This document shows, piece by piece, positions 12,712 to 21,424 of a DNA stretch of 25,656 nucleotides. The notes under the pieces were generated by a model. The model was not told where the DNA came from. It ran no database searches and saw nothing but the letters and a program-made list of their open reading frames with translations. The DNA is from Gemmatimonadota bacterium. Its GTDB lineage: Bacteria; Gemmatimonadota; Gemmatimonadetes; Palauibacterales; Palauibacteraceae. A program made the position numbers and the translations under genes. Each line of letters starts with the position of its first letter. The stretch's first letter is position 1. The stretch lies in contig JAOTWC010000001.1 of assembly GCA_029863105.1 (NCBI GenBank), forward strand, positions 1 through 25,656, given 5' to 3'.

Positions 12712-13245
12712 TCAGTCTCCTGCGGCCTGCCAGCGGCCTGCGCGATGCGCTTCCTTCAGTACCAGATAGTGAGCCACCGTGCGCCGTGCGCGGGAAACCA
12801 AGTCGTCATCCACCTGCCGAACGACGCGTCCCGGGACGCCCACGACGAGACTGCGGGGCGGCACGACCATACCTTCCCGGATCAAGGCTCCAGCGCCAAT
12901 CACCGATCCCCCACCGACGACGGCGTGCGACAGGACGATCGCCCCCATCCCGATCAGGCATCCGTCACCGATCGTGCATCCGTGGACAATCGCGCGATGC
13001 CCGATTCCCACATCCGACCCGATTTCACAGGGCTGATCCGTGTCCACGTGTACCACGGTGAGATCCTGGATGTTCGTGCGCTCGCCGACCCGGATCGCAG
13101 CGATATCCCCACGCAGGACACAACCGTACCACACGCTGGCCCCGGCGCCGAGGACGACGTCTCCAGACACGACGGCACCCGGCGCGATCCAGGCACCATC
13201 GCCGAGCGTCGGGCGGGCGCTGGTCGTCAGTTGGTCGATCCTCAC
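12712..13245 (-). CDS. Gamma carbonic anhydrase-like (YrdA/CaiE-type hexapeptide-repeat) protein
   Basis: GDVVLG..ASVWYGCVLRGD, TNIQDLTVVH and GHRAIVHGC (three His ligands); GTG 13245 overlaps the amidase TGA (GTGA). Confidence 0.9.
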   Translation of the reverse strand: MRIDQLTTSARPTLGDGAWIAPGAVVSGDVVLGAGASVWYGCVLRGDIAAIRVGERTNIQDLTVVHVDTDQPCEIGSDVGIGHRAIVHGCTIGDGCLIGMGAIVLSHAVVGGGSVIGAGALIREGMVVPPRSLVVGVPGRVVRQVDDDLVSRARRTVAHYLVLKEAHRAGRWQAAGD

Positions 13246-15173
13246 GGCTGGAGCTGCGCTTCTTCGGCCGTCTGCCGGAAGAATCCCTCGATCCCGGCCA
13301 GCACCCCGCGCGCATATCTCTCCTGGAATTCCGGCGTCTTGAGCGCTGCCTCGTGGGCAGGGATCATCATGAAAGCCCCTTCCGTCAGAATCGATGGCAT
13401 CCACGACATGCGGGTAACCGCCAGATCGCCCCAATAGACACCGAGGTCGCGCAATCTCATCGAAGCGAGCATTCCGTCCTGCACGGCCTCGGCCAGGCCA
13501 TGGGAATGCGGGTGGTAGTGGTACGTGCTCGTCCCTTCCCGCCCGACAGGCTGCACCCCGTCAGGCAGGGCATTGTTGTGGATGGACACGAAGACATCCG
13601 CCTCCGCTTCGATGGCCCTCTGCGTCCGCTCGTACAGACCGACAGGGAGCGTGTCATCCCGGATCAGAACGGGCTCGCCGCCGGATTGGCGCACCAGCTT
13701 GGCCAGGATCCGACCGATCTCCAGGTTGGCGTCACCTTCGTAATACCCGGTCGGACCATGTGCGCCGGCTGCGGGATGCCCGGGATCGATCGCGATGCGC
13801 CGGCCTCGCAGGGGAACCATCGGATCGATGGATGGCGGACGGCGGATCTCGAACCGGAGCTCGACTCCGCCGTCGTCACGCGGGGCCCAGCTCGTGCGGT
13901 ATCCCCATACCCGTTCCACAAGATGGATGCGCAAGCGGTAACGGTCACCGGGCAGCTGCTCCCACTCGATACGCTCGATCAACCGCCCGCCCGCACCTTC
14001 GCGAATCCGATTCGTCGCACCGGTCGCGCCGAACAGCGTGAGCTCGATGATGTGTGAGTCGGGTTCGGTCACCGCTACGGGAACGGCGGCAGCGAGCCAC
14101 GTCCGCATGACGATCCGGTCCGGACGTACTTCGAAGCGCAGGTCTCCGACGTCGCTGCGCGCGGGCAGGCTTCCGGCCGGCAGCACTTCCAGATCTTCCT
14201 CCGCGACCCAGGCGACCAGCCCGGGAGCCAGGCGTACCCGCCAGCGGTTCCCCTCGCGACCATCGAGCGTGACCCGCGTGTGATCCGGGAACAGCCAGCG
14301 GTACGGACCGAACGGTGCCGGCCTGGCGTTGATCACGCCGTCCGCTCCCCCTGCCGGATCGTCCGGTTCGCGCAATTCGGCGACGGGCAATTCAGCCGGA
14401 CTCAGAATACGCAGCGGCAAAACCACGGCGCCGCGAGCCGTGGCGTTTCCGACGACGACGCTCACGCCAAGACGCAGCGAGTCCGCCGTGGCTGCCCAGT
14501 TACAGTCCTCCGGCGCACACGCGATCCGATAGAACGACTCCGCGGGCATGGCGAGTCGGTAGGTGCCTGTTTGTTCGGTCTCGGTCATCGACAGACGCCG
14601 GTTTCCCGCATCCAACCAGACCTCGGCACCGGGCGTGGCCCGCACGGTGACCGCGAGTTCGTCGCCCGGCAGCGCCCAGCGGATCGCATGATCCTCAAGC
14701 GACGCAGGATCGATCCACGGGGCGTCGGCTGCACCCTCGAACGCTCGCTCCGGCACGAGAAAAGGATGACGCAGAGTATCGACCTGGCTCCCTCGTCGGG
14801 CGACCAGCAGATAGGAAGCCGTGTCACCCGTCTCCGGCGGGGGAACCGGCAGATAGGCCAGGAAGGACCCGTTGGGGTTCACGTCGACGAAGTAACCGTT
14901 CACGATCAACGTCGCGTCGCCCGTGCCGATGGAGCCGAATACGAAGTTGGAGTCACTGGAGGTGATTCGCTGCAGAGAATCTGGATACTCCACGTGGAGA
15001 CGGATGGGCCCGATCACCGCCGGGATCGGTGGCAGCACACTTCCGATGATTCCCGGCGGCAGCAATCCTGGCGCTGCGGAAGTCCCGCCACACCCGGCGA
15101 AGCCGGTGATGGTCGCGATGGTCGCGATGGCTGCGATGGCCGACGTGGGTCGGCGCTTCCTCAGAGTTACCAC
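13242..15173 (-). CDS. N-acetylmuramoyl-L-alanine amidase (Amidase_3), lipoprotein with SH3-like and AMIN-like upstream domains
   Basis: IAIDPGH, EGDANL, VSIHNNA and ILTEGAFM; lipobox FAGC; GTG 2 nt after the SSS stop. The ORF-track N-terminal 150 aa is overlap with the SSS gene. Confidence 0.88.
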   Translation of the reverse strand: MVTLRKRRPTSAIAAIATIATITGFAGCGGTSAAPGLLPPGIIGSVLPPIPAVIGPIRLHVEYPDSLQRITSSDSNFVFGSIGTGDATLIVNGYFVDVNPNGSFLAYLPVPPPETGDTASYLLVARRGSQVDTLRHPFLVPERAFEGAADAPWIDPASLEDHAIRWALPGDELAVTVRATPGAEVWLDAGNRRLSMTETEQTGTYRLAMPAESFYRIACAPEDCNWAATADSLRLGVSVVVGNATARGAVVLPLRILSPAELPVAELREPDDPAGGADGVINARPAPFGPYRWLFPDHTRVTLDGREGNRWRVRLAPGLVAWVAEEDLEVLPAGSLPARSDVGDLRFEVRPDRIVMRTWLAAAVPVAVTEPDSHIIELTLFGATGATNRIREGAGGRLIERIEWEQLPGDRYRLRIHLVERVWGYRTSWAPRDDGGVELRFEIRRPPSIDPMVPLRGRRIAIDPGHPAAGAHGPTGYYEGDANLEIGRILAKLVRQSGGEPVLIRDDTLPVGLYERTQRAIEAEADVFVSIHNNALPDGVQPVGREGTSTYHYHPHSHGLAEAVQDGMLASMRLRDLGVYWGDLAVTRMSWMPSILTEGAFMMIPAHEAALKTPEFQERYARGVLAGIEGFFRQTAEEAQLQP

Positions 15174-15175
15174 CT

Positions 15176-16912
15176 CTATTCCGCCACCTCTCCCGTTGAG
15201 CGCCAGCGTCGCAGGGCGATGAGTCCCACACTGCCGACGACAGCCGCGAGCATCGCCGTCCTCCATTCGTACAGCATCGCGCCGCCGACCGCGAACATCA
15301 GCCCGAACAGCAGCATGGCGGCGCCGAGCGTGCGAAACAAATCCTGTCGGAGTGCCGTGACCGGCTCGAGACCCGTGCGCTGCCGAGAACGCTTCCATCC
15401 GGGGCCGCCAGGCCGAACCCGACGATAGAACGTGTCGAGTGTTTCGTCGGACTCCGGCTTGGTGAGAAACATTACGGCCATCCATATGATGCCCGAGCCG
15501 AAGGCTGTCACGGTCAGACGCGCCCCGAAATCGAGTCCCCCGAACATCGGCAGGTAGGAACCGATGGCGATCCCAAAGCCTGCCAGCATGGCGGCTAGTT
15601 CCGCCCATGCGTTCACACGCCACCAGAACCAGCGGAGAATGAGAACGGCACCCGGACCGGTTCCGATGGCAATCACGAACCGGAACACGGTACCGATGTC
15701 ATTGGTGAAGAACGCGGCGACGCCACCGCACAGGACCATCAGCACCGAGGCCAGGCGACCCATGAGCACCAGCCGCTTCTGCGGCGCGTCCGGCTCGACG
15801 AACCGGGCCCACAGATCGTTTACGACGTAGCTCGCACCCCAGTTGATCTGCGTGGAAACCGTGGACATGAAAGCCGCGACAAAGGACGCGACCACGAGCC
15901 CGAGTACTCCGGCCGGCAGGTAGCGAAGCATGAGGAGTGGATACCCCATTTCCGGGTCCTCGAGATTCGGGAACACGACGATCGCCGCGAGAGCCGCAAG
16001 AATCCACGGCCACGCGCGCAGCACGTAGTGCAGGAGATTGAACAGCCACGCCGCTTTCTCCGCATCCTTCTCAGTCTTCGCCGCGGACATCCGCTGGACG
16101 AATTCTCCGCCTCCGTCAGAGCGGCGCCAGGCCCACCACTGGATGCCCAGGTATGCCAGAAAAGTGCCCATCGGCAACTCCAGGGACCCGGGCGTGGGCA
16201 GCATCCCGAGCGCGTCGGACCGGCCGGCCGCTTCGAGTCCCTGTTTCAGCTCGCCGATTCCTCCGATGTCGACGATCGCATAACCGGCGACCAGCAGGGC
16301 GCCGAGCATCGCCAGCCCGAATTGCAGGAAGTCTGTGGCCACGACGCCCCACAGACCGGACACGCCGGCGTATACGAGGACAAACACGGACAGGCCGACG
16401 ACGATCCATAGACGTCCGTCCCCGGGAAGCCACGCAGGAAGCGCATCGATCACACCCAGTGCTTCGATGACCTTGCGCATCGCGAGCATGACGTAACCGA
16501 TCGCGATGCAGTTGATCGGCACCGCGAACAGGAAAGCGCGTGTGCCGCGCAGCACCGCCGCAGGTCGACCACCGTACCGGATTTCCGTCAACTCGGCATC
16601 TGTGACGACTTCGGCGCGGCGCCACAGGCGCGCGAACAGGTAGATGAGCAGGACGTGGGAAAGGGCGAACGCCCACCACTCCCAGTTGCCGGCGATCCCT
16701 CGCCGCGCCACGAGACCCGTCACGTATAGCGGCGTGTCCACGCTGAAGGTAGTGGCTGCCATCGAAGTGCCGGCGAGCCACCACGGCAGCGAGCGGCCGC
16801 TGACAAAAAATTCCACCAGGCTGCCGCTCGCACGCCTCGCGAGCCACAGGCCGATCGCCAACGTCCCGACCAGGTACGCACCGACGATCCACCAGTCCAG
16901 CGCTCCCATCAT
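15176..16912 (-). CDS. Sodium:solute symporter (SSS) family transporter
   Basis: EFFVSGRSLPWWLAGTSMAATTFSVDTPL, GLWGVVATDFLQ and AAFMSTVSTQINWGASY; many TM helices; ATGA overlap with the nagZ stop. Confidence 0.93.
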   Translation of the reverse strand: MMGALDWWIVGAYLVGTLAIGLWLARRASGSLVEFFVSGRSLPWWLAGTSMAATTFSVDTPLYVTGLVARRGIAGNWEWWAFALSHVLLIYLFARLWRRAEVVTDAELTEIRYGGRPAAVLRGTRAFLFAVPINCIAIGYVMLAMRKVIEALGVIDALPAWLPGDGRLWIVVGLSVFVLVYAGVSGLWGVVATDFLQFGLAMLGALLVAGYAIVDIGGIGELKQGLEAAGRSDALGMLPTPGSLELPMGTFLAYLGIQWWAWRRSDGGGEFVQRMSAAKTEKDAEKAAWLFNLLHYVLRAWPWILAALAAIVVFPNLEDPEMGYPLLMLRYLPAGVLGLVVASFVAAFMSTVSTQINWGASYVVNDLWARFVEPDAPQKRLVLMGRLASVLMVLCGGVAAFFTNDIGTVFRFVIAIGTGPGAVLILRWFWWRVNAWAELAAMLAGFGIAIGSYLPMFGGLDFGARLTVTAFGSGIIWMAVMFLTKPESDETLDTFYRRVRPGGPGWKRSRQRTGLEPVTALRQDLFRTLGAAMLLFGLMFAVGGAMLYEWRTAMLAAVVGSVGLIALRRWRSTGEVAE

Positions 16913-18354
16913 GGGCCTGCTCCGGCGCCGTCGAGGATCGTCCGGGCCGCGGCTCGCTCCATCGTCGGTTCGGTTCCCCAGGCGCACACGCCGACCCCGC
17001 CCAATTCCGCGAGCAGCCTCCGGTGTCCGAATGCTACCGGAAGTACGTCCTGGGAGGTCACTATCACCGACCGAACAGCTTCCTGCGTCCTCGGCGTCAG
17101 CCCGGCACTCCCTTTCCAGGCTTGCGGCGTCGACGCGATGAGCACAATCGCGAAGCGGGCGTCGTCGGAATCGTCGATCGTCCAGCCCGCCGCCTCAAAT
17201 TCCCGATTGAACGCCTCTCCAAACGGCGGCCTGCCCGGCTGCTCTCGATCGTCCCAAATCGCAACGACGCGCACACAGCGTTCCGAGCGCAGCCAGCCGG
17301 GCAGCTCACCGATCGTAAGCACGCTGTCGGTCGCAAGCTTCAGGCTCGCTTGATGAGAGTCGTCCTCCCGGCAGGTTGCGTCCGACAGCCGCATCCGGGC
17401 CGTCTCGGACCTCCGGATCGCGGTTTCGAGCCGTGCGCGGACGGCTGGATCGTCGCGGGCGGCTGCTTCGAGCGCTTCGACGGTGGCACGGAGATCCTCG
17501 GGGTAGACCAGCAGGTCACACCCGGCGGCGAGCGCCGCTACCGCTGCCCGACCGCCACTGCCCTGTGCGTCGAGGAAGCCGCTCATGTTCATGGCGTCGG
17601 TAATGACCAGACCCTCGAACGCGAGGTCACCGCGCAGCACGTGATCGATAATCTCCGGGCTCATCGTGGCCGGCAGGCTGGCTCCGAAGCCCGGGTAGAG
17701 GACGTGTGCGACCATGATGGCTGCTACTCGGTCGGCCACCTCGCGAAACGGCCGGACATCCGACTCCAGCATCGCCCGGGACGCATCGACGACGGGGATT
17801 TCCTCATGCGAATCGGCGACGGCCCGGCCGTGTCCCGGAAAGTGCTTGGCGCACGCGAGCACACCTTCGGCCTGGCAGGCGTCGATCCACGCTCGGCCGA
17901 GTTGTGCCACCACGCGCTCGTCCGCCGAGAACGCCCGCGTTCCGATGATCGGGTTCCTCGGTTCGACGTCCAGGTCCAGCACCGGGGCGAACACCAGATC
18001 GATGCCGAGGTTGCGGGCAGCGCGACCCGTGATCCGACCGGCCAGGGTGGCGGCTTCGATCGGTCGACGGTGAGCCGCCAGTCCTGCCGGCGGAGGTAAC
18101 GTAGGCAAGCCCCCGAACTGTTGACCCGGTCCGCGTTCGAGGTCCGATCCGATCCACAGAGGGTGCCCGGCGGACTCCCTCAACTCGGCGACCAGCCGGC
18201 GCACCTGCTCGCCCTGCCCCCCGAACAGGATGAACCCGCCCACGCCGAGGCCGAGCGCGCTCTTCGCCGTTTCCCGCACTTGCGCCTCAGGTTCGAGGTC
18301 CAGGCGAAGCGCCTCCAGTACGACCCGACCCGCGCATTCCCTGGCCTCCATCAC
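16909..18354 (-). CDS. nagZ: GH3 beta-N-acetylhexosaminidase (NagZ-like), no signal peptide
   Basis: SDLERG, APVLDL, RAFS, KHFPGHG..ADSH (NagZ Asp-His dyad loop) and ITDAMNM; ATGA overlap with the anmK stop. Confidence 0.88.
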   Translation of the reverse strand: MMEARECAGRVVLEALRLDLEPEAQVRETAKSALGLGVGGFILFGGQGEQVRRLVAELRESAGHPLWIGSDLERGPGQQFGGLPTLPPPAGLAAHRRPIEAATLAGRITGRAARNLGIDLVFAPVLDLDVEPRNPIIGTRAFSADERVVAQLGRAWIDACQAEGVLACAKHFPGHGRAVADSHEEIPVVDASRAMLESDVRPFREVADRVAAIMVAHVLYPGFGASLPATMSPEIIDHVLRGDLAFEGLVITDAMNMSGFLDAQGSGGRAAVAALAAGCDLLVYPEDLRATVEALEAAARDDPAVRARLETAIRRSETARMRLSDATCREDDSHQASLKLATDSVLTIGELPGWLRSERCVRVVAIWDDREQPGRPPFGEAFNREFEAAGWTIDDSDDARFAIVLIASTPQAWKGSAGLTPRTQEAVRSVIVTSQDVLPVAFGHRRLLAELGGVGVCAWGTEPTMERAAARTILDGAGAGP

Positions 18355-19493
18355 GCCGGGATCCGTTTTCCCAGCCGGCGTGGGCCCGCCGCCCCCGTGG
18401 CCCAGGACAGGTTCACCGGAATTCCGAGTACGTGCTGGCGGGCCAGGAGGGCGAACGCCGCCGCCTCTCGAGCATCACCGTTCCAGCCGACCTCCTCGAG
18501 CAGACGGACATCCGAATCTGGCAGGTGGCCGACCAGACGTCGTCGGATTTCCGCGTTGCGAGCGCCGCCTCCGCTCAGCAGTACCTCATCGACCCGAAAC
18601 CCGACCCGTGAGTAGCTGTCGGCGATCGAACGGGCCGTGAATTCGGTGAGCGTCGCGAGGGCGTCGGCGGGAGACAGGTCGTCGTGGCGGTCGAGCCATG
18701 CGTTCACGCGCGCCGCGCCGAATCTCTCTCGCCCCGTACTGCGCGGAGGCCCCTCGGCAAAAAACGGGTCAGTCATCCACTCAGCGACCAGGGCCTCACG
18801 CGCGGCTCCAGAAGCCGCCAGACGACCGTCCTCATCCCAGGCGGCTCCAGTGAACCGCGCTGCGGCTGCGTCGATCATCGCGACGCCGGGGCCCGTGTCG
18901 AAAGCCACGGGCGAGGTGGAGCTATCCGCCAGCGGAGGGAGCGCCGTGACGTTTGCCATCCCGCCGATGTTCTGGACCGCCCGGGCGTGGTCGGTTCGCA
19001 GCAGAAGATCGTCGAACGCAGGCGTGAGCGGGGCTCCGTGCCCCCCGGCCGCCATGTCGCGCACACGGAAGTCGGCAATTACATCGGTGCCCGTCCGTTC
19101 CGCGATCAATGCGGGCTCGCCGAGCTGGAGCGTCGATCCGCCCCCGCCGGGTCCAGGAGGACAATGCCGGAACGTCTGCCCGTGACTGCCGATGGCGATC
19201 ACGGGCTCCGATGCCGCTTCGATTGCGGCCGCCGCCGCCTCGGCGAACCGTTCTCCCAGGTCGAAATTCAGCCGGCACAACGCGTCGGAACCGGCGTCAC
19301 CCTCCACGGCATCGCGCAGTCGGGCAGCGAACTCCGGCTCATAACGCAGCGTGTCGAACCATTCCAGGCGGGCCACGGCGGGGATCTCGGCCGGACCCTC
19401 GAACCTGACGAGCGCCGCGTCGATACCGTCCAGCGACGTCCCGGACATCAGGCCCACGTACAGGCCCCCCGCTTCAGGCTGGCGTGGTGTCAA
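18351..19493 (-). CDS. anmK: Anhydro-N-acetylmuramic acid kinase
   Basis: GLMSGTSLDGID, IGSHGQT, DFRVRD.AAGGHGAPL, NIGGMAN, FDTGPG, STGRE, GGGARN and EAAAFA; TTG start with GAGGA SD. Confidence 0.96.
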   Translation of the reverse strand: MTPRQPEAGGLYVGLMSGTSLDGIDAALVRFEGPAEIPAVARLEWFDTLRYEPEFAARLRDAVEGDAGSDALCRLNFDLGERFAEAAAAAIEAASEPVIAIGSHGQTFRHCPPGPGGGGSTLQLGEPALIAERTGTDVIADFRVRDMAAGGHGAPLTPAFDDLLLRTDHARAVQNIGGMANVTALPPLADSSTSPVAFDTGPGVAMIDAAAARFTGAAWDEDGRLAASGAAREALVAEWMTDPFFAEGPPRSTGRERFGAARVNAWLDRHDDLSPADALATLTEFTARSIADSYSRVGFRVDEVLLSGGGARNAEIRRRLVGHLPDSDVRLLEEVGWNGDAREAAAFALLARQHVLGIPVNLSWATGAAGPRRLGKRIPA

Positions 19494-19560
19494 GTGCGTG
19501 TTTCCTCACGATCCGGGTCCAGGCGCCATTCGAGAGGGGAGAAGCTAACCCGCGGTACCG

Positions 19561-19611
19561 ACCATAGAACAGCGGGTCGGACCTTGCATCCTCACTGCCC
19601 CCGGGTACCAT
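19561..19611. promoter_or_regulatory. Candidate back-to-back promoters for the anmK operon and ggt
   Basis: Plus strand TTGCAT (19584-19589)-N16-TACCAT (19606-19611); minus strand ATGCAA (same 6 bp)-N17-TATGGT (19566-19561). Confidence 0.4.
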
Positions 19612-19669
19612 TGATCATGCGTCGGATTCCTCCGACAATCCACGACACGCCGACGGAGGCTGTGCGGCT

Positions 19670-21424
19670 TTGACCATTCACGACCGTATCTCCCGGACAG
19701 CCCTGCTCCTGTTGCTCGTGGTCGCCGGCTGCTCATCACCAACACAGACGCGACCTTCCGTCACCGAGGCTGACGTGCAATTTCCCGCCGCGTGGCGGTA
19801 TGACGCACGAACCCGGCCCGTGAGCGCGGACAGCGGGATGGTGGTGTCGACGGACAGCCTGGCGTCAGCGGCGGGAGTGGAGATTCTGCGCGCTGGCGGC
19901 AACGCCGTTGAGGCGGCGATCGCCACGTCCTTCGCCCTCGCGGTGGTCAACCCCGAGGCCGGCAACGTCGGTGGCGGTGGATTCATGGTGGCGCGCCTGG
20001 CCGACGGGACGGAATTCGCGCTCGACTATCGCGAACAGGCCCCGGGTGGCGCGACGTCGGATATGTACGTCGACGAGCAGGGCCGCGTAACGGACCGGGG
20101 CGTGGAGGGTCACCTCGCATCCGGCGTGCCGGGAACGGTAGCGGGCCTGGAAGCCGCGTATTTGAGGTACGGAGAGCTTCCGTGGGCTCGGCTTCTGGAG
20201 CCCGCGATACGACTCGCAAGGGACGGATTTCATGTGGCCGAGCGGCACCACAATTCGATTCGCGACAAGCGCGAACTGCTGAGCAAGTTCCCGACATCCG
20301 CCGGCAAGTTTCTGCCGCGAGGCGAGCCGCCCCCGATCGGATCCTCATTCAAGCAGCCTTATCTCGCGCGCACGCTGCAGGCGATCGCCGACGGGGGAGC
20401 CGCCGCTTTCTATGAGGGTTGGATCGCCGATTCGCTGGCTGCCGAAATGCGGCGGGGCGGAGGATTGATCAACCGGCGGGACCTGGCCGCGTACGAGGCC
20501 GTGTGGCGGGAGCCGGTGCGCGCGGAGTATCGCGGGTACGAGGTGGTGTCTATGCCGCCGGCGTCCTCGGGCGGTACGACCCTGACCCAGATCCTGAACA
20601 TCATGGAGGGGTTCGATCTCCAGACCGCCGGCTGGCACTCGGCCGAGGCGATTCACCTCGCCGTGGAAGCCATGCGTCGTGCGTATGCGGATCGCAATTA
20701 CTACCTGGGTGACACGGATTTCGTGGACGTCCCGCTCGCCATGCTGACGTCGGAGTCGTACGCCGATTCCCTGCGCCGCTCAATCGACCGGGACCGGGCG
20801 TCGGTGTCGGAGGAGTTCAATCGGGTCTCGGTCGAATCCGAAAACACGACGCACGTGTCGGTCGTTGACGTGCGCGGGAATGCCGTTGCGGTCACGACGA
20901 CGTTGAATTCCGGTTTCGGATCGGGAGTCGTCGTGCGTGGCGCGGGTTTCCTGCTCAACAACGAGATGGACGATTTCACCTCCCTCGTCGGGGTTCCGAA
21001 CCTGTATGGCCTGGTTCAGGGTGAGGCAAATGCCATCGCCCCCGGAAAGCGGATGCTGTCGGCCATGACGCCGACGATTGTCATCAATCCGCAGGGACGG
21101 ACCGAGCTCGTCACAGGCACTCCCGGGGGGGCGACGATCATCACGACCGTGTTTCAGATCGTCACGAACCACATCGACTTCGGTCTTCCCGTGCAGACCT
21201 CGGTAAACGCTCCTCGATTCCATCACCAGCATCTTCCCGACGTCATCCGGTTCGAGAAGGACGGCCTTCCGGCATCGGTCGTGGCGGAGCTTCGGTCGCT
21301 CGGACACGAAGTTTCGGAGCGGACCGGAATCTCCGGGAATGTGGAGTCGATCTACATCGCTCCCGACGGAACGATGTTCGGGGCTGCGGACCCCCGCCGG
21401 TACAGCAAGGCGATCGGTTACTAG
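19670..21424 (+). CDS. ggt: Gamma-glutamyltransferase (Ntn hydrolase), lipoprotein
   Basis: GGNAVEAA, GNVGGGGF, DYREQAP, GVPGTVAG, ENT-THVSV (autocatalytic Thr), NNEMDDF, PGKRMLSAM and GTPGG; lipobox VAGC; TTG start. Confidence 0.96.
   Translation: MTIHDRISRTALLLLLVVAGCSSPTQTRPSVTEADVQFPAAWRYDARTRPVSADSGMVVSTDSLASAAGVEILRAGGNAVEAAIATSFALAVVNPEAGNVGGGGFMVARLADGTEFALDYREQAPGGATSDMYVDEQGRVTDRGVEGHLASGVPGTVAGLEAAYLRYGELPWARLLEPAIRLARDGFHVAERHHNSIRDKRELLSKFPTSAGKFLPRGEPPPIGSSFKQPYLARTLQAIADGGAAAFYEGWIADSLAAEMRRGGGLINRRDLAAYEAVWREPVRAEYRGYEVVSMPPASSGGTTLTQILNIMEGFDLQTAGWHSAEAIHLAVEAMRRAYADRNYYLGDTDFVDVPLAMLTSESYADSLRRSIDRDRASVSEEFNRVSVESENTTHVSVVDVRGNAVAVTTTLNSGFGSGVVVRGAGFLLNNEMDDFTSLVGVPNLYGLVQGEANAIAPGKRMLSAMTPTIVINPQGRTELVTGTPGGATIITTVFQIVTNHIDFGLPVQTSVNAPRFHHQHLPDVIRFEKDGLPASVVAELRSLGHEVSERTGISGNVESIYIAPDGTMFGAADPRRYSKAIGY

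Follow-up and report, generated by a model that had tools for sequence, protein, structure and literature searches.

We describe an operon in a 25,656-nucleotide stretch of DNA (the window) from an uncultured Gemmatimonadota bacterium, in which a transporter of the sodium:solute symporter (SSS) family is encoded among enzymes of peptidoglycan recycling. The transporter (578 residues, 15176-16912 on the minus strand) occupies the operon position that in other members of the phylum is taken by AmpG, an importer of the major facilitator superfamily (MFS), and on this ground it is a strong candidate to represent a new importer family for cell-wall fragments. The locus is a real, conserved operon. 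Its genes suggest that it probably serves the recycling or salvage of peptidoglycan, with a Na+-coupled SSS having replaced the MFS protein AmpG and with peptide-free N-acetylglucosamine-1,6-anhydro-N-acetylmuramic acid (GlcNAc-anhMurNAc) as the cargo. The broader claim, that the SSS acts as the amino-sugar importer of a recycling locus, we consider highly probable. An earlier reading of the bare sequence (the original prediction) had already placed an SSS here in lieu of AmpG or of a phosphotransferase system (PTS). The present analysis points the same way, transport itself being the deduced part: the two transporters swap in one slot and exclude each other in two phyla, and neither AmpG nor a PTS EIIC component was found in the window genome or in the four relatives inspected. 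The slot swap and the two-phylum exclusion are new here, and on these genomic grounds the assignment of the transporter appears well supported.

Occurrence and genomic position of the transporter

The family assignment of the transporter is clear. It matches PF00474 (E=3.5e-29, 102.3 bits versus a cut-off of 22.8, residues 35-445), stays under the cut-off of TIGR00813 (134 bits versus 184) and scores far under those of the PutP and PanF models. Being an SSS and not an MFS protein, it is no member of the AmpG family (TIGR00901). A homologue search among 1.8 billion representative proteins returned 834 clusters at E<1e-30, and a tree of 110 SSS homologues revealed two fully supported clades. Clade A comprises the window protein and its counterparts in other Gemmatimonadota (56-91% identical), among which are nested proteins of Cyanobacteria (49-64%), including Leptolyngbya PCC 7375, Crocosphaera, marine Synechococcus and Prochlorococcus. 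Clade B (40-49% identical) comprises proteins of Acidobacteriota, Planctomycetota, Nitrospirota, further Gemmatimonadota and others.

In 201 sampled Gemmatimonadota genomes we set the position of the top-scoring SSS match against that of the AnmK match; in addition, anmK-centred regions were taken from 29 further genomes and the locus genes mapped by tblastn. The same layout was seen in every locus examined: a divergent gamma-glutamyltransferase gene, then murQ-anmK-nagZ followed by a slot, with the amidase gene further on. In the clade-A loci the row murQ-anmK-nagZ-SSS recurs, often with the amidase gene next to it and with the gene for the gamma-glutamyltransferase, a lipoprotein, divergent upstream. 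In 31 of the 38 Gemmatimonadota genomes that have a clade-A SSS, anmK is found on the same contig at 1.4-4 kb from the transporter gene; the other seven mostly concern contig ends or matches not listed, and in two of these (G128 and G179) the genes are on different contigs. This arrangement is far beyond chance. Moreover, the clade-A SSS occurs together with anmK in 37 of the 38 genomes, the exception being a contig end; clade B is present also in lineages that lack anmK. An association of the SSS clade with anmK and nagZ elsewhere, to which the original prediction had attached weight, is thus seen across the Gemmatimonadota.

The content of the slot varies. A clade-A SSS is found there in the window and in G196, G086, G150, G197 and G186. 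The slot holds AmpG in G047, where murQ-anmK-nagZ-ampG-amidase lie on one strand (AmpG 480 bits versus a cut-off of 350), and in G106 and G052, where AmpG likewise exceeds the curated cut-off and the genes are arranged much as in G047. A lower-scoring AmpG-like gene on the opposite strand is present in G125 and G050, and no transporter gene is present in the slot of G083, G147, G122, G063 and others. In these empty-slot loci nagZ and the amidase gene are separated by an opposite-strand module, identified with Pfam and a GC3 filter, that encodes an FHA-trypsin protein, a PP2C protein, a Ser/Thr kinase and an FHA-zinc-ribbon protein; on account of this annotation the intervening genes were rejected as transporter candidates.

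The distributions of the two transporters within the phylum are mutually exclusive. At thresholds of E<1e-190 for the clade-A SSS and E<1e-50 for AmpG, the former is present in 38 and the latter in 35 of the 201 genomes (including a weak match of 1.6e-52 in G122), and both together in none. An overlap of 6.6 genomes would be expected (hypergeometric P=3e-4, uncorrected). G157 was counted among the 201 as a genome with neither and enters into no other claim. The sole borderline case of co-occurrence is G049, which has a weak AmpG-like MFS protein (3.5e-37). Beside anmK this genome carries a partial clade-A SSS (contig C27, 40296-41282 on the minus strand, residues 2-330, 68% identical), which may represent a decaying copy. 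Both states are even found within three genera, in which one and the same site behind nagZ either has or lacks the SSS gene. In genus g28 the SSS follows nagZ in G150 and is missing from G083, whose AmpG (496 bits) is encoded on another contig; in genus g64 it is present in G197 and missing from G147, which carries AmpG elsewhere; in genus g14 it is present in G186 and missing from G122, which has only the weak AmpG-like MFS protein.

The same exclusion is found in the Cyanobacteriota. Among 151 genomes, 18 (about 12% of those sampled) carry a clade-A SSS and 26 have AmpG over the cut-off, again without overlap (P=0.026). Since AnmK is present in 150 of the 151, a phyletic profile with AnmK is uninformative in this phylum. 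The cyanobacterial sequences (L042-L056, L062-L067 and L070) are nested within the Gemmatimonadota part of clade A with full support, a pattern that suggests that the gene passed horizontally from one phylum to the other.

These distributions bear on the possibility that the SSS merely rides in the operon and transports an unrelated solute, for instance a different sugar or a derivative of an amino acid. The source annotation as a Na+/proline symporter would be in line with this, as would the unrelated neighbours of the cyanobacterial orthologues and of many clade-B relatives, and the occurrence of the SSS in so few Cyanobacteriota although nearly all have AnmK. Nevertheless, we regard it as quite unlikely, considering that the operon position and the 4-nucleotide overlaps are conserved in at least five Gemmatimonadota families, that AmpG is strictly excluded in two phyla, that presence and absence alternate at one site within genera, and that the scores with the PutP and PanF models are far under the cut-offs.

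Enzymes of the locus and the nature of the cargo

The enzymes encoded next to the transporter are readily recognized. AnmK matches PF03702 (E=6.1e-94, 315.6 bits versus a cut-off of 24) and just exceeds the equivalog cut-off of NF007148 (389.6 bits versus 387). The GH3 protein matches PF00933 (E=6.2e-59, 200 bits) and its translation contains the sequence KHFPGHGRAVADSH, of the form KHFPGHG-x4-DSH, which agrees with the NagZ signature, KH(F/I)PG(H/L)G-x4-D(S/T)H. It scores under the NagZ equivalog cut-off (NF003740, 188.9 bits versus 207) and extends at the C-terminus by some 150 further residues, in which no Pfam match was found. In this protein and in the 11 orthologues inspected the conserved domain begins within about 10 residues of the start and there is no signal peptide, in agreement with the original prediction; this applies to SSS-type and AmpG-type loci alike. 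Judged from sequence, NagZ and the ATP-dependent AnmK act in the cytoplasm and the amidase outside of it. With NagZ cytoplasmic in both types of locus, a GlcNAc-containing disaccharide must therefore be imported.

This last consideration is relevant to the alternative that a monosaccharide, be it free 1,6-anhydro-N-acetylmuramic acid (anhMurNAc) or N-acetylmuramic acid (MurNAc), enters through the SSS after trimming in the periplasm and in the manner of MurT, with the substrate of NagZ arriving by another route. No characterized sugar-carrying SSS protein is known to transport anything larger than a monosaccharide, vSGLT and SGLT are the nearest relatives of solved structure, and AnmK is encoded by the first gene of the operon. 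In addition, PMC5790795 places MurT of Tannerella, a non-PTS importer of MurNAc, in the sodium symporter superfamily. Against this, the NagZ proteins inspected all lack a signal peptide and would need a cytoplasmic disaccharide, and no alternative importer for a disaccharide was found in the window genome or its relatives. Moreover, the SSS swaps with AmpG, for which the GlcNAc-anhMurNAc disaccharide is the essential part of any substrate (Cheng and Park 2002, cited in PMC7670621). Import of a monosaccharide thus appears unlikely.

The amidase matches PF01520 (E=1.7e-30, 106.7 bits, residues 460-629). It starts with basic and hydrophobic segments and an FAGC lipobox, the Cys of which is kept in most of 15 orthologues, two of which have an ordinary signal peptide instead; the protein had been called a lipoprotein before, and these features corroborate that view. 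An AlphaFold model of the amidase (16 orthologues; predicted local distance difference test score 84.8) has tandem beta-sandwich domains followed by a compact C-terminal Amidase_3 domain. In Foldseek comparisons the N-terminal part matches Ig-like tandems, and the catalytic domain matches AmiC2, CwlV and LytH (5EMI, 4RN7, 1JWQ and 7TJ4) with template modelling scores of 0.84-0.89. The catalytic domain has about 170 residues, and its scores versus AmiA, AmiB and AmiC are only 0.46-0.78; by this comparison of overall folds it resembles the short forms more closely and may lack the autoinhibitory helix that is inserted in the EnvC/NlpD-regulated subtype (E. coli AmiA/B/C). Four residues, H466, E479, H532 and E598, are invariant in the 16 orthologues and constitute the conserved His-Glu-His plus Glu, which act as ligands in zinc amidases of this type.

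We made an inventory of the remaining pathway in the window genome and four relatives, G201, G086, G135 and G196, of which G196 is closed (3.6 Mb). AmpG (TIGR00901) had no match in the window genome and was not found in the four relatives, and the same five genomes yielded no PTS EIIC, and thus no MurP, no Amidase_2 protein (AmpD/AmiD) and no Mpl over the cut-off. These absences are relevant to a further alternative, in which the SSS imports whole anhydromuropeptides, i.e. the disaccharide with its stem peptide. AmpG takes both forms and the SSS occupies the slot of AmpG, which would fit. Yet the only amidase of the locus is exported, neither AmpD nor Mpl was detected in the five genomes, and a cargo of approximately 850-1000 Da would be very large for the cavity of an SSS. 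We therefore hold this alternative to be highly improbable.

Peptide-free GlcNAc-anhMurNAc fits best as the cargo because NagZ is cytoplasmic, because the sole amidase is exported and because the SSS swaps with AmpG. The proposed route would start with the GlcNAc-1,6-anhydroMurNAc-peptides that lytic transglycosylases release in the periplasm. The exported Amidase_3 lipoprotein would then strip off the stem peptide; export and fold are observed, and the timing, before import, is deduced from the failure to find a cytoplasmic amidase of the AmpD type. The SSS would next move the peptide-free disaccharide over the inner membrane, driven by Na+. In the cytoplasm, as the observed family assignments indicate, NagZ would remove GlcNAc and AnmK would turn anhMurNAc into MurNAc-6-phosphate.

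The fate of MurNAc-6-phosphate may vary between species. In most relatives it would be converted to GlcNAc-6-phosphate by MurQ, the gene for which is present in G135, G196 and G075. In the window genome, in its closest relative G201 and in G086, the operon starts with anmK, and murQ was found neither there nor elsewhere in these three genomes. Instead, the window genome, G201, G086 and G196 have an adjacent kinase and nucleotidyltransferase for which the best NCBIfam matches, under the cut-offs, are AmgK and MurU (in the window genome on contig C347, locus L157, 4127-6303 on the minus strand). The pair hints, tentatively, at the anabolic MurNAc branch of the Pseudomonas type (PMC5371407), and MurNAc-6-phosphate would in the window genome probably be processed by a phosphatase and this pair to UDP-MurNAc. 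The genes to which the original prediction had drawn attention are thereby accounted for: ampG and murP were not found, murQ is absent from the finds in the window genome, and an amgK-murU-like pair is present.

Several points weigh against import of peptide-free GlcNAc-anhMurNAc by an SSS that replaced AmpG. A disaccharide is not known as the cargo of any characterized SSS member. The exclusion statistics treat the genomes of both phyla without correction for phylogeny. Neither a clade-A SSS nor AmpG is present in 94 of the 167 anmK-positive Gemmatimonadota or in most Cyanobacteriota; with so many anmK-positive genomes having neither transporter, another import route must therefore exist, and this could serve the window genome too. 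No peptidoglycan genes lie close to the cyanobacterial orthologues (50-64% identical), the neighbours being RlmN, RpoC2, a HEAT protein, a GNAT protein, a patatin and a sigma factor. The amidase is kept in AmpG-type loci as well, and its presence alone therefore does not define the cargo. Finally, the window genome is 82% complete, so that its absences rest on the relatives.

Probable sodium and sugar sites of the transporter

A comparison of the family profile with the PDB gave vSGLT (2XQ2) as the best match (E=4.6e-60), followed by SGLT1/2 (about 1e-48 to 1e-51) and SiaT (6.5e-36). In the alignment to vSGLT, residues A62, A361, S364 and S365 correspond to A53, A347, S350 and T351 of the SSS. 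In a set of 27 homologues the two Ala residues, A53 and A347, do not vary, and conservation is at least 90% for both S350 and T351. The vSGLT residues are those reported for its Na2 site (Faham 2008; an Ala in transmembrane helix 1, and an Ala plus a Ser and a Ser/Thr in helix 8). Residues Q69, E88 and S91 of vSGLT, the galactose ligands, correspond to T60, W79 and F82. We read this as Na+ coupling that would be kept in combination with a different sugar pocket. The SSS is also extended at its C-terminus, by about 90 residues that include a conserved FYRxVRPxGxW motif.

One homologue, P0121 (L034, 2671-7005 on the plus strand, 1444 residues), was considered as a domain fusion with a recycling enzyme and rejected, as the SSS continues without a stop into a TonB-dependent-receptor-like protein with a signal peptide of its own. 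The SSS part belongs to clade A (63% identical), and the arrangement stems from merged adjacent genes or a lost stop. The read-through hints at an outer-membrane partner for the SSS.

Operon layout and neighbouring genes

The window has a G+C content of 65%, and the assembly of the host comprises 2.1 Mb in 414 contigs. The operon is a minus-strand chain of five genes. It is headed by anmK (18351-19493), which codes for anhydro-N-acetylmuramic acid kinase and for which the longest open reading frame has a TTG start. The gene for the cytoplasmic, NagZ-type GH3 beta-N-acetylglucosaminidase (16909-18354) follows, then those for the SGLT-branch SSS and for the exported Amidase_3 lipoprotein, an N-acetylmuramoyl-L-alanine amidase (13242-15173, GTG start), and finally a gene for a gamma-carbonic-anhydrase-like left-handed beta-helix protein (12712-13245, GTG start). 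The first four of these had been called earlier, and all four were recovered at the same minus-strand coordinates, with their families assigned by Pfam and NCBIfam; the fifth is an addition.

The junctions are tight throughout. The start of nagZ overlaps the stop of anmK as GTGA (a GTG start over a TGA stop) or, should translation begin at the next ATG, as TGATG. The nagZ/SSS junction reads ATGA in the sequence, the TAG stop of the SSS gene is separated by 2 nucleotides from the GTG start of the amidase gene, and the TGA of the latter is overlapped as GTGA, again read from the sequence, by the start of the fifth gene. The ATGA overlaps and 2-nucleotide gap of the original prediction are thus retained for the nagZ/SSS and SSS/amidase junctions, but not for anmK/nagZ, where the overlap is of another form. 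The gamma-carbonic-anhydrase-like protein matches NF050158 (E=6.3e-46, under the cut-off) and Hexapep (PF00132) and has PaaY-like hexapeptide repeats. Its gene is probably coupled translationally to the chain as the fifth member, and the order of amidase gene and gamma-carbonic-anhydrase-like gene is shared with L037 and G086.

Upstream of anmK lies a divergent intergenic region (19494-19669), the presumed promoter region of the operon, in which a scan for a sigma-70 consensus and terminators gave no usable match. On its other side the gene for a gamma-glutamyltransferase with a lipoprotein signal is located (19670-21424 on the plus strand; PF01019 E=8e-174; TIGR00066 555 bits, cut-off 358). 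A divergent gene of this kind stands beside murQ/anmK in nearly all Gemmatimonadota loci inspected, whatever the transporter (L037, L041, L058-L061, L117-L125, L129, L131-L136, L158-L161 and L166). One might speculate that the enzyme acts on the gamma-D-glutamyl stem peptides that the amidase sets free. The four-gene FHA/PP2C/kinase module mentioned above lies between nagZ or the SSS gene and the amidase gene in many Gemmatimonadota (L122, 8464-13463 on the minus strand; also L123, L125, L129, L132, L134, L135 and L158-L161) and could link wall turnover to Ser/Thr signalling.

Wider family and implications

The genomic context of the clade-B relatives is mixed. Some have murQ (L089, L095), GH3 (L075), GH3-beta-lactamase fusion (L074, L094), GH20 (L071) or ROK kinase genes (L088, L106) as neighbours, and in L035 a 44% identical clade-B SSS is part of a full murQ-anmK-x-x-GH3-SSS row; many others have unrelated neighbours. 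The SSS subfamily thus appears to lean towards amino-sugar metabolism, with the relationship to AmpG seen in clade A only. In Gemmatimonadota, clade-B paralogues are also found coupled to a GH3-beta-lactamase-fold fusion of 1035 residues, as in L074 (6897-10004 and 10001-11521, both on the plus strand, with a 4-nucleotide overlap) and in L094, L081 and L102. This pair may constitute a second amino-sugar uptake module and is a candidate route where AmpG and the clade-A SSS are missing.

Extending the proposal from the window to the clade, we put forward with reserve, and as somewhat doubtful in its full breadth, that the clade-A proteins could be Na+-driven GlcNAc-1,6-anhydroMurNAc importers. 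They would then be the first SSS proteins for a disaccharide and would join AmpG and YejBEF-YepA as a third class of importers for anhydromuropeptides, independent of both, serving the AmpG-less Gemmatimonadota and, by horizontal transfer, some Cyanobacteria including marine Synechococcus and Prochlorococcus.

The recycling of wall-turnover products is understood mainly in Proteobacteria, and how diderm phyla without AmpG re-import them is an open question. The locus provides a concrete candidate for another replacement of AmpG, and the genomic evidence for it is clean: the same slot, swaps within genera and exclusion in two phyla. If true, the substrate range of the SSS family would be extended and peptidoglycan recycling could be annotated in Gemmatimonadota and in some Cyanobacteria. 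It would also bear on the cell-wall material that is released or taken up by abundant soil and marine bacteria.

Comparison with known systems

Full-text searches yielded no paper that joins an SSS transporter to AnmK, NagZ or the replacement of AmpG, and none on peptidoglycan recycling in Gemmatimonadota. The best solved homologues are vSGLT and human SGLT1/2 (PDB 2XQ2 and 7SLA), with which the SSS shares the Ala and Ser/Thr residues of the Na2 site; it differs from vSGLT in the galactose residues, which are not kept, and in the C-terminal extension. SiaT (PDB 5NV9) and the GlcNAc1A importer OngIT (PMC9537276) are similar in being SSS carriers of acidic N-acetylated amino sugars. They are more distant than the SGLT branch, however, and carry monosaccharides in the context of catabolic clusters that are unrelated to anmK and nagZ.

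MurT of Tannerella forsythia, encoded in the murTKQ operon (Ruscitto 2016), resembles the SSS, by description, in being a non-PTS secondary transporter of an amino sugar encoded beside a kinase and MurQ. PMC5790795 and PMC7670621 describe it as a non-PTS importer of free MurNAc, and the former assigns it both to the sodium symporter superfamily and to the MFS. MurT differs in carrying free MurNAc and in pairing with MurK instead of AnmK and NagZ, and Tannerella has AmpG as well. Among 101 Bacteroidota genomes sampled, no homologue of the window SSS was found in 20 murQ loci, and no recognizable murT-murK-murQ operon was found there.

A precedent for the replacement of AmpG is the ABC transporter YejBEF-YepA of Agrobacterium (Gilmore and Cava 2022, PMC9790009). 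As is proposed for the SSS, it is a non-orthologous replacement where the other recycling enzymes stay. It is, however, driven by ATP, has a periplasmic binding protein, imports peptide-bearing muropeptides in lineages that keep AmpD, and is unrelated in sequence to the SSS. AmpG of E. coli and Pseudomonas, for which a cryo-EM structure is available (PMC11568325), has an MFS fold that is unrelated to the LeuT fold of the SSS. AmpG uses the proton motive force whereas Na+ is predicted for the SSS, and the cargo of the latter is probably free of peptide, since no AmpD was found. Nevertheless, AmpG is the system that the SSS most resembles in its setting: the slot in murQ-anmK-nagZ-X-amidase and the downstream enzymes are the same, the distributions are exclusive of each other in 201 Gemmatimonadota and 151 Cyanobacteriota, and the disaccharide moved would be the same.

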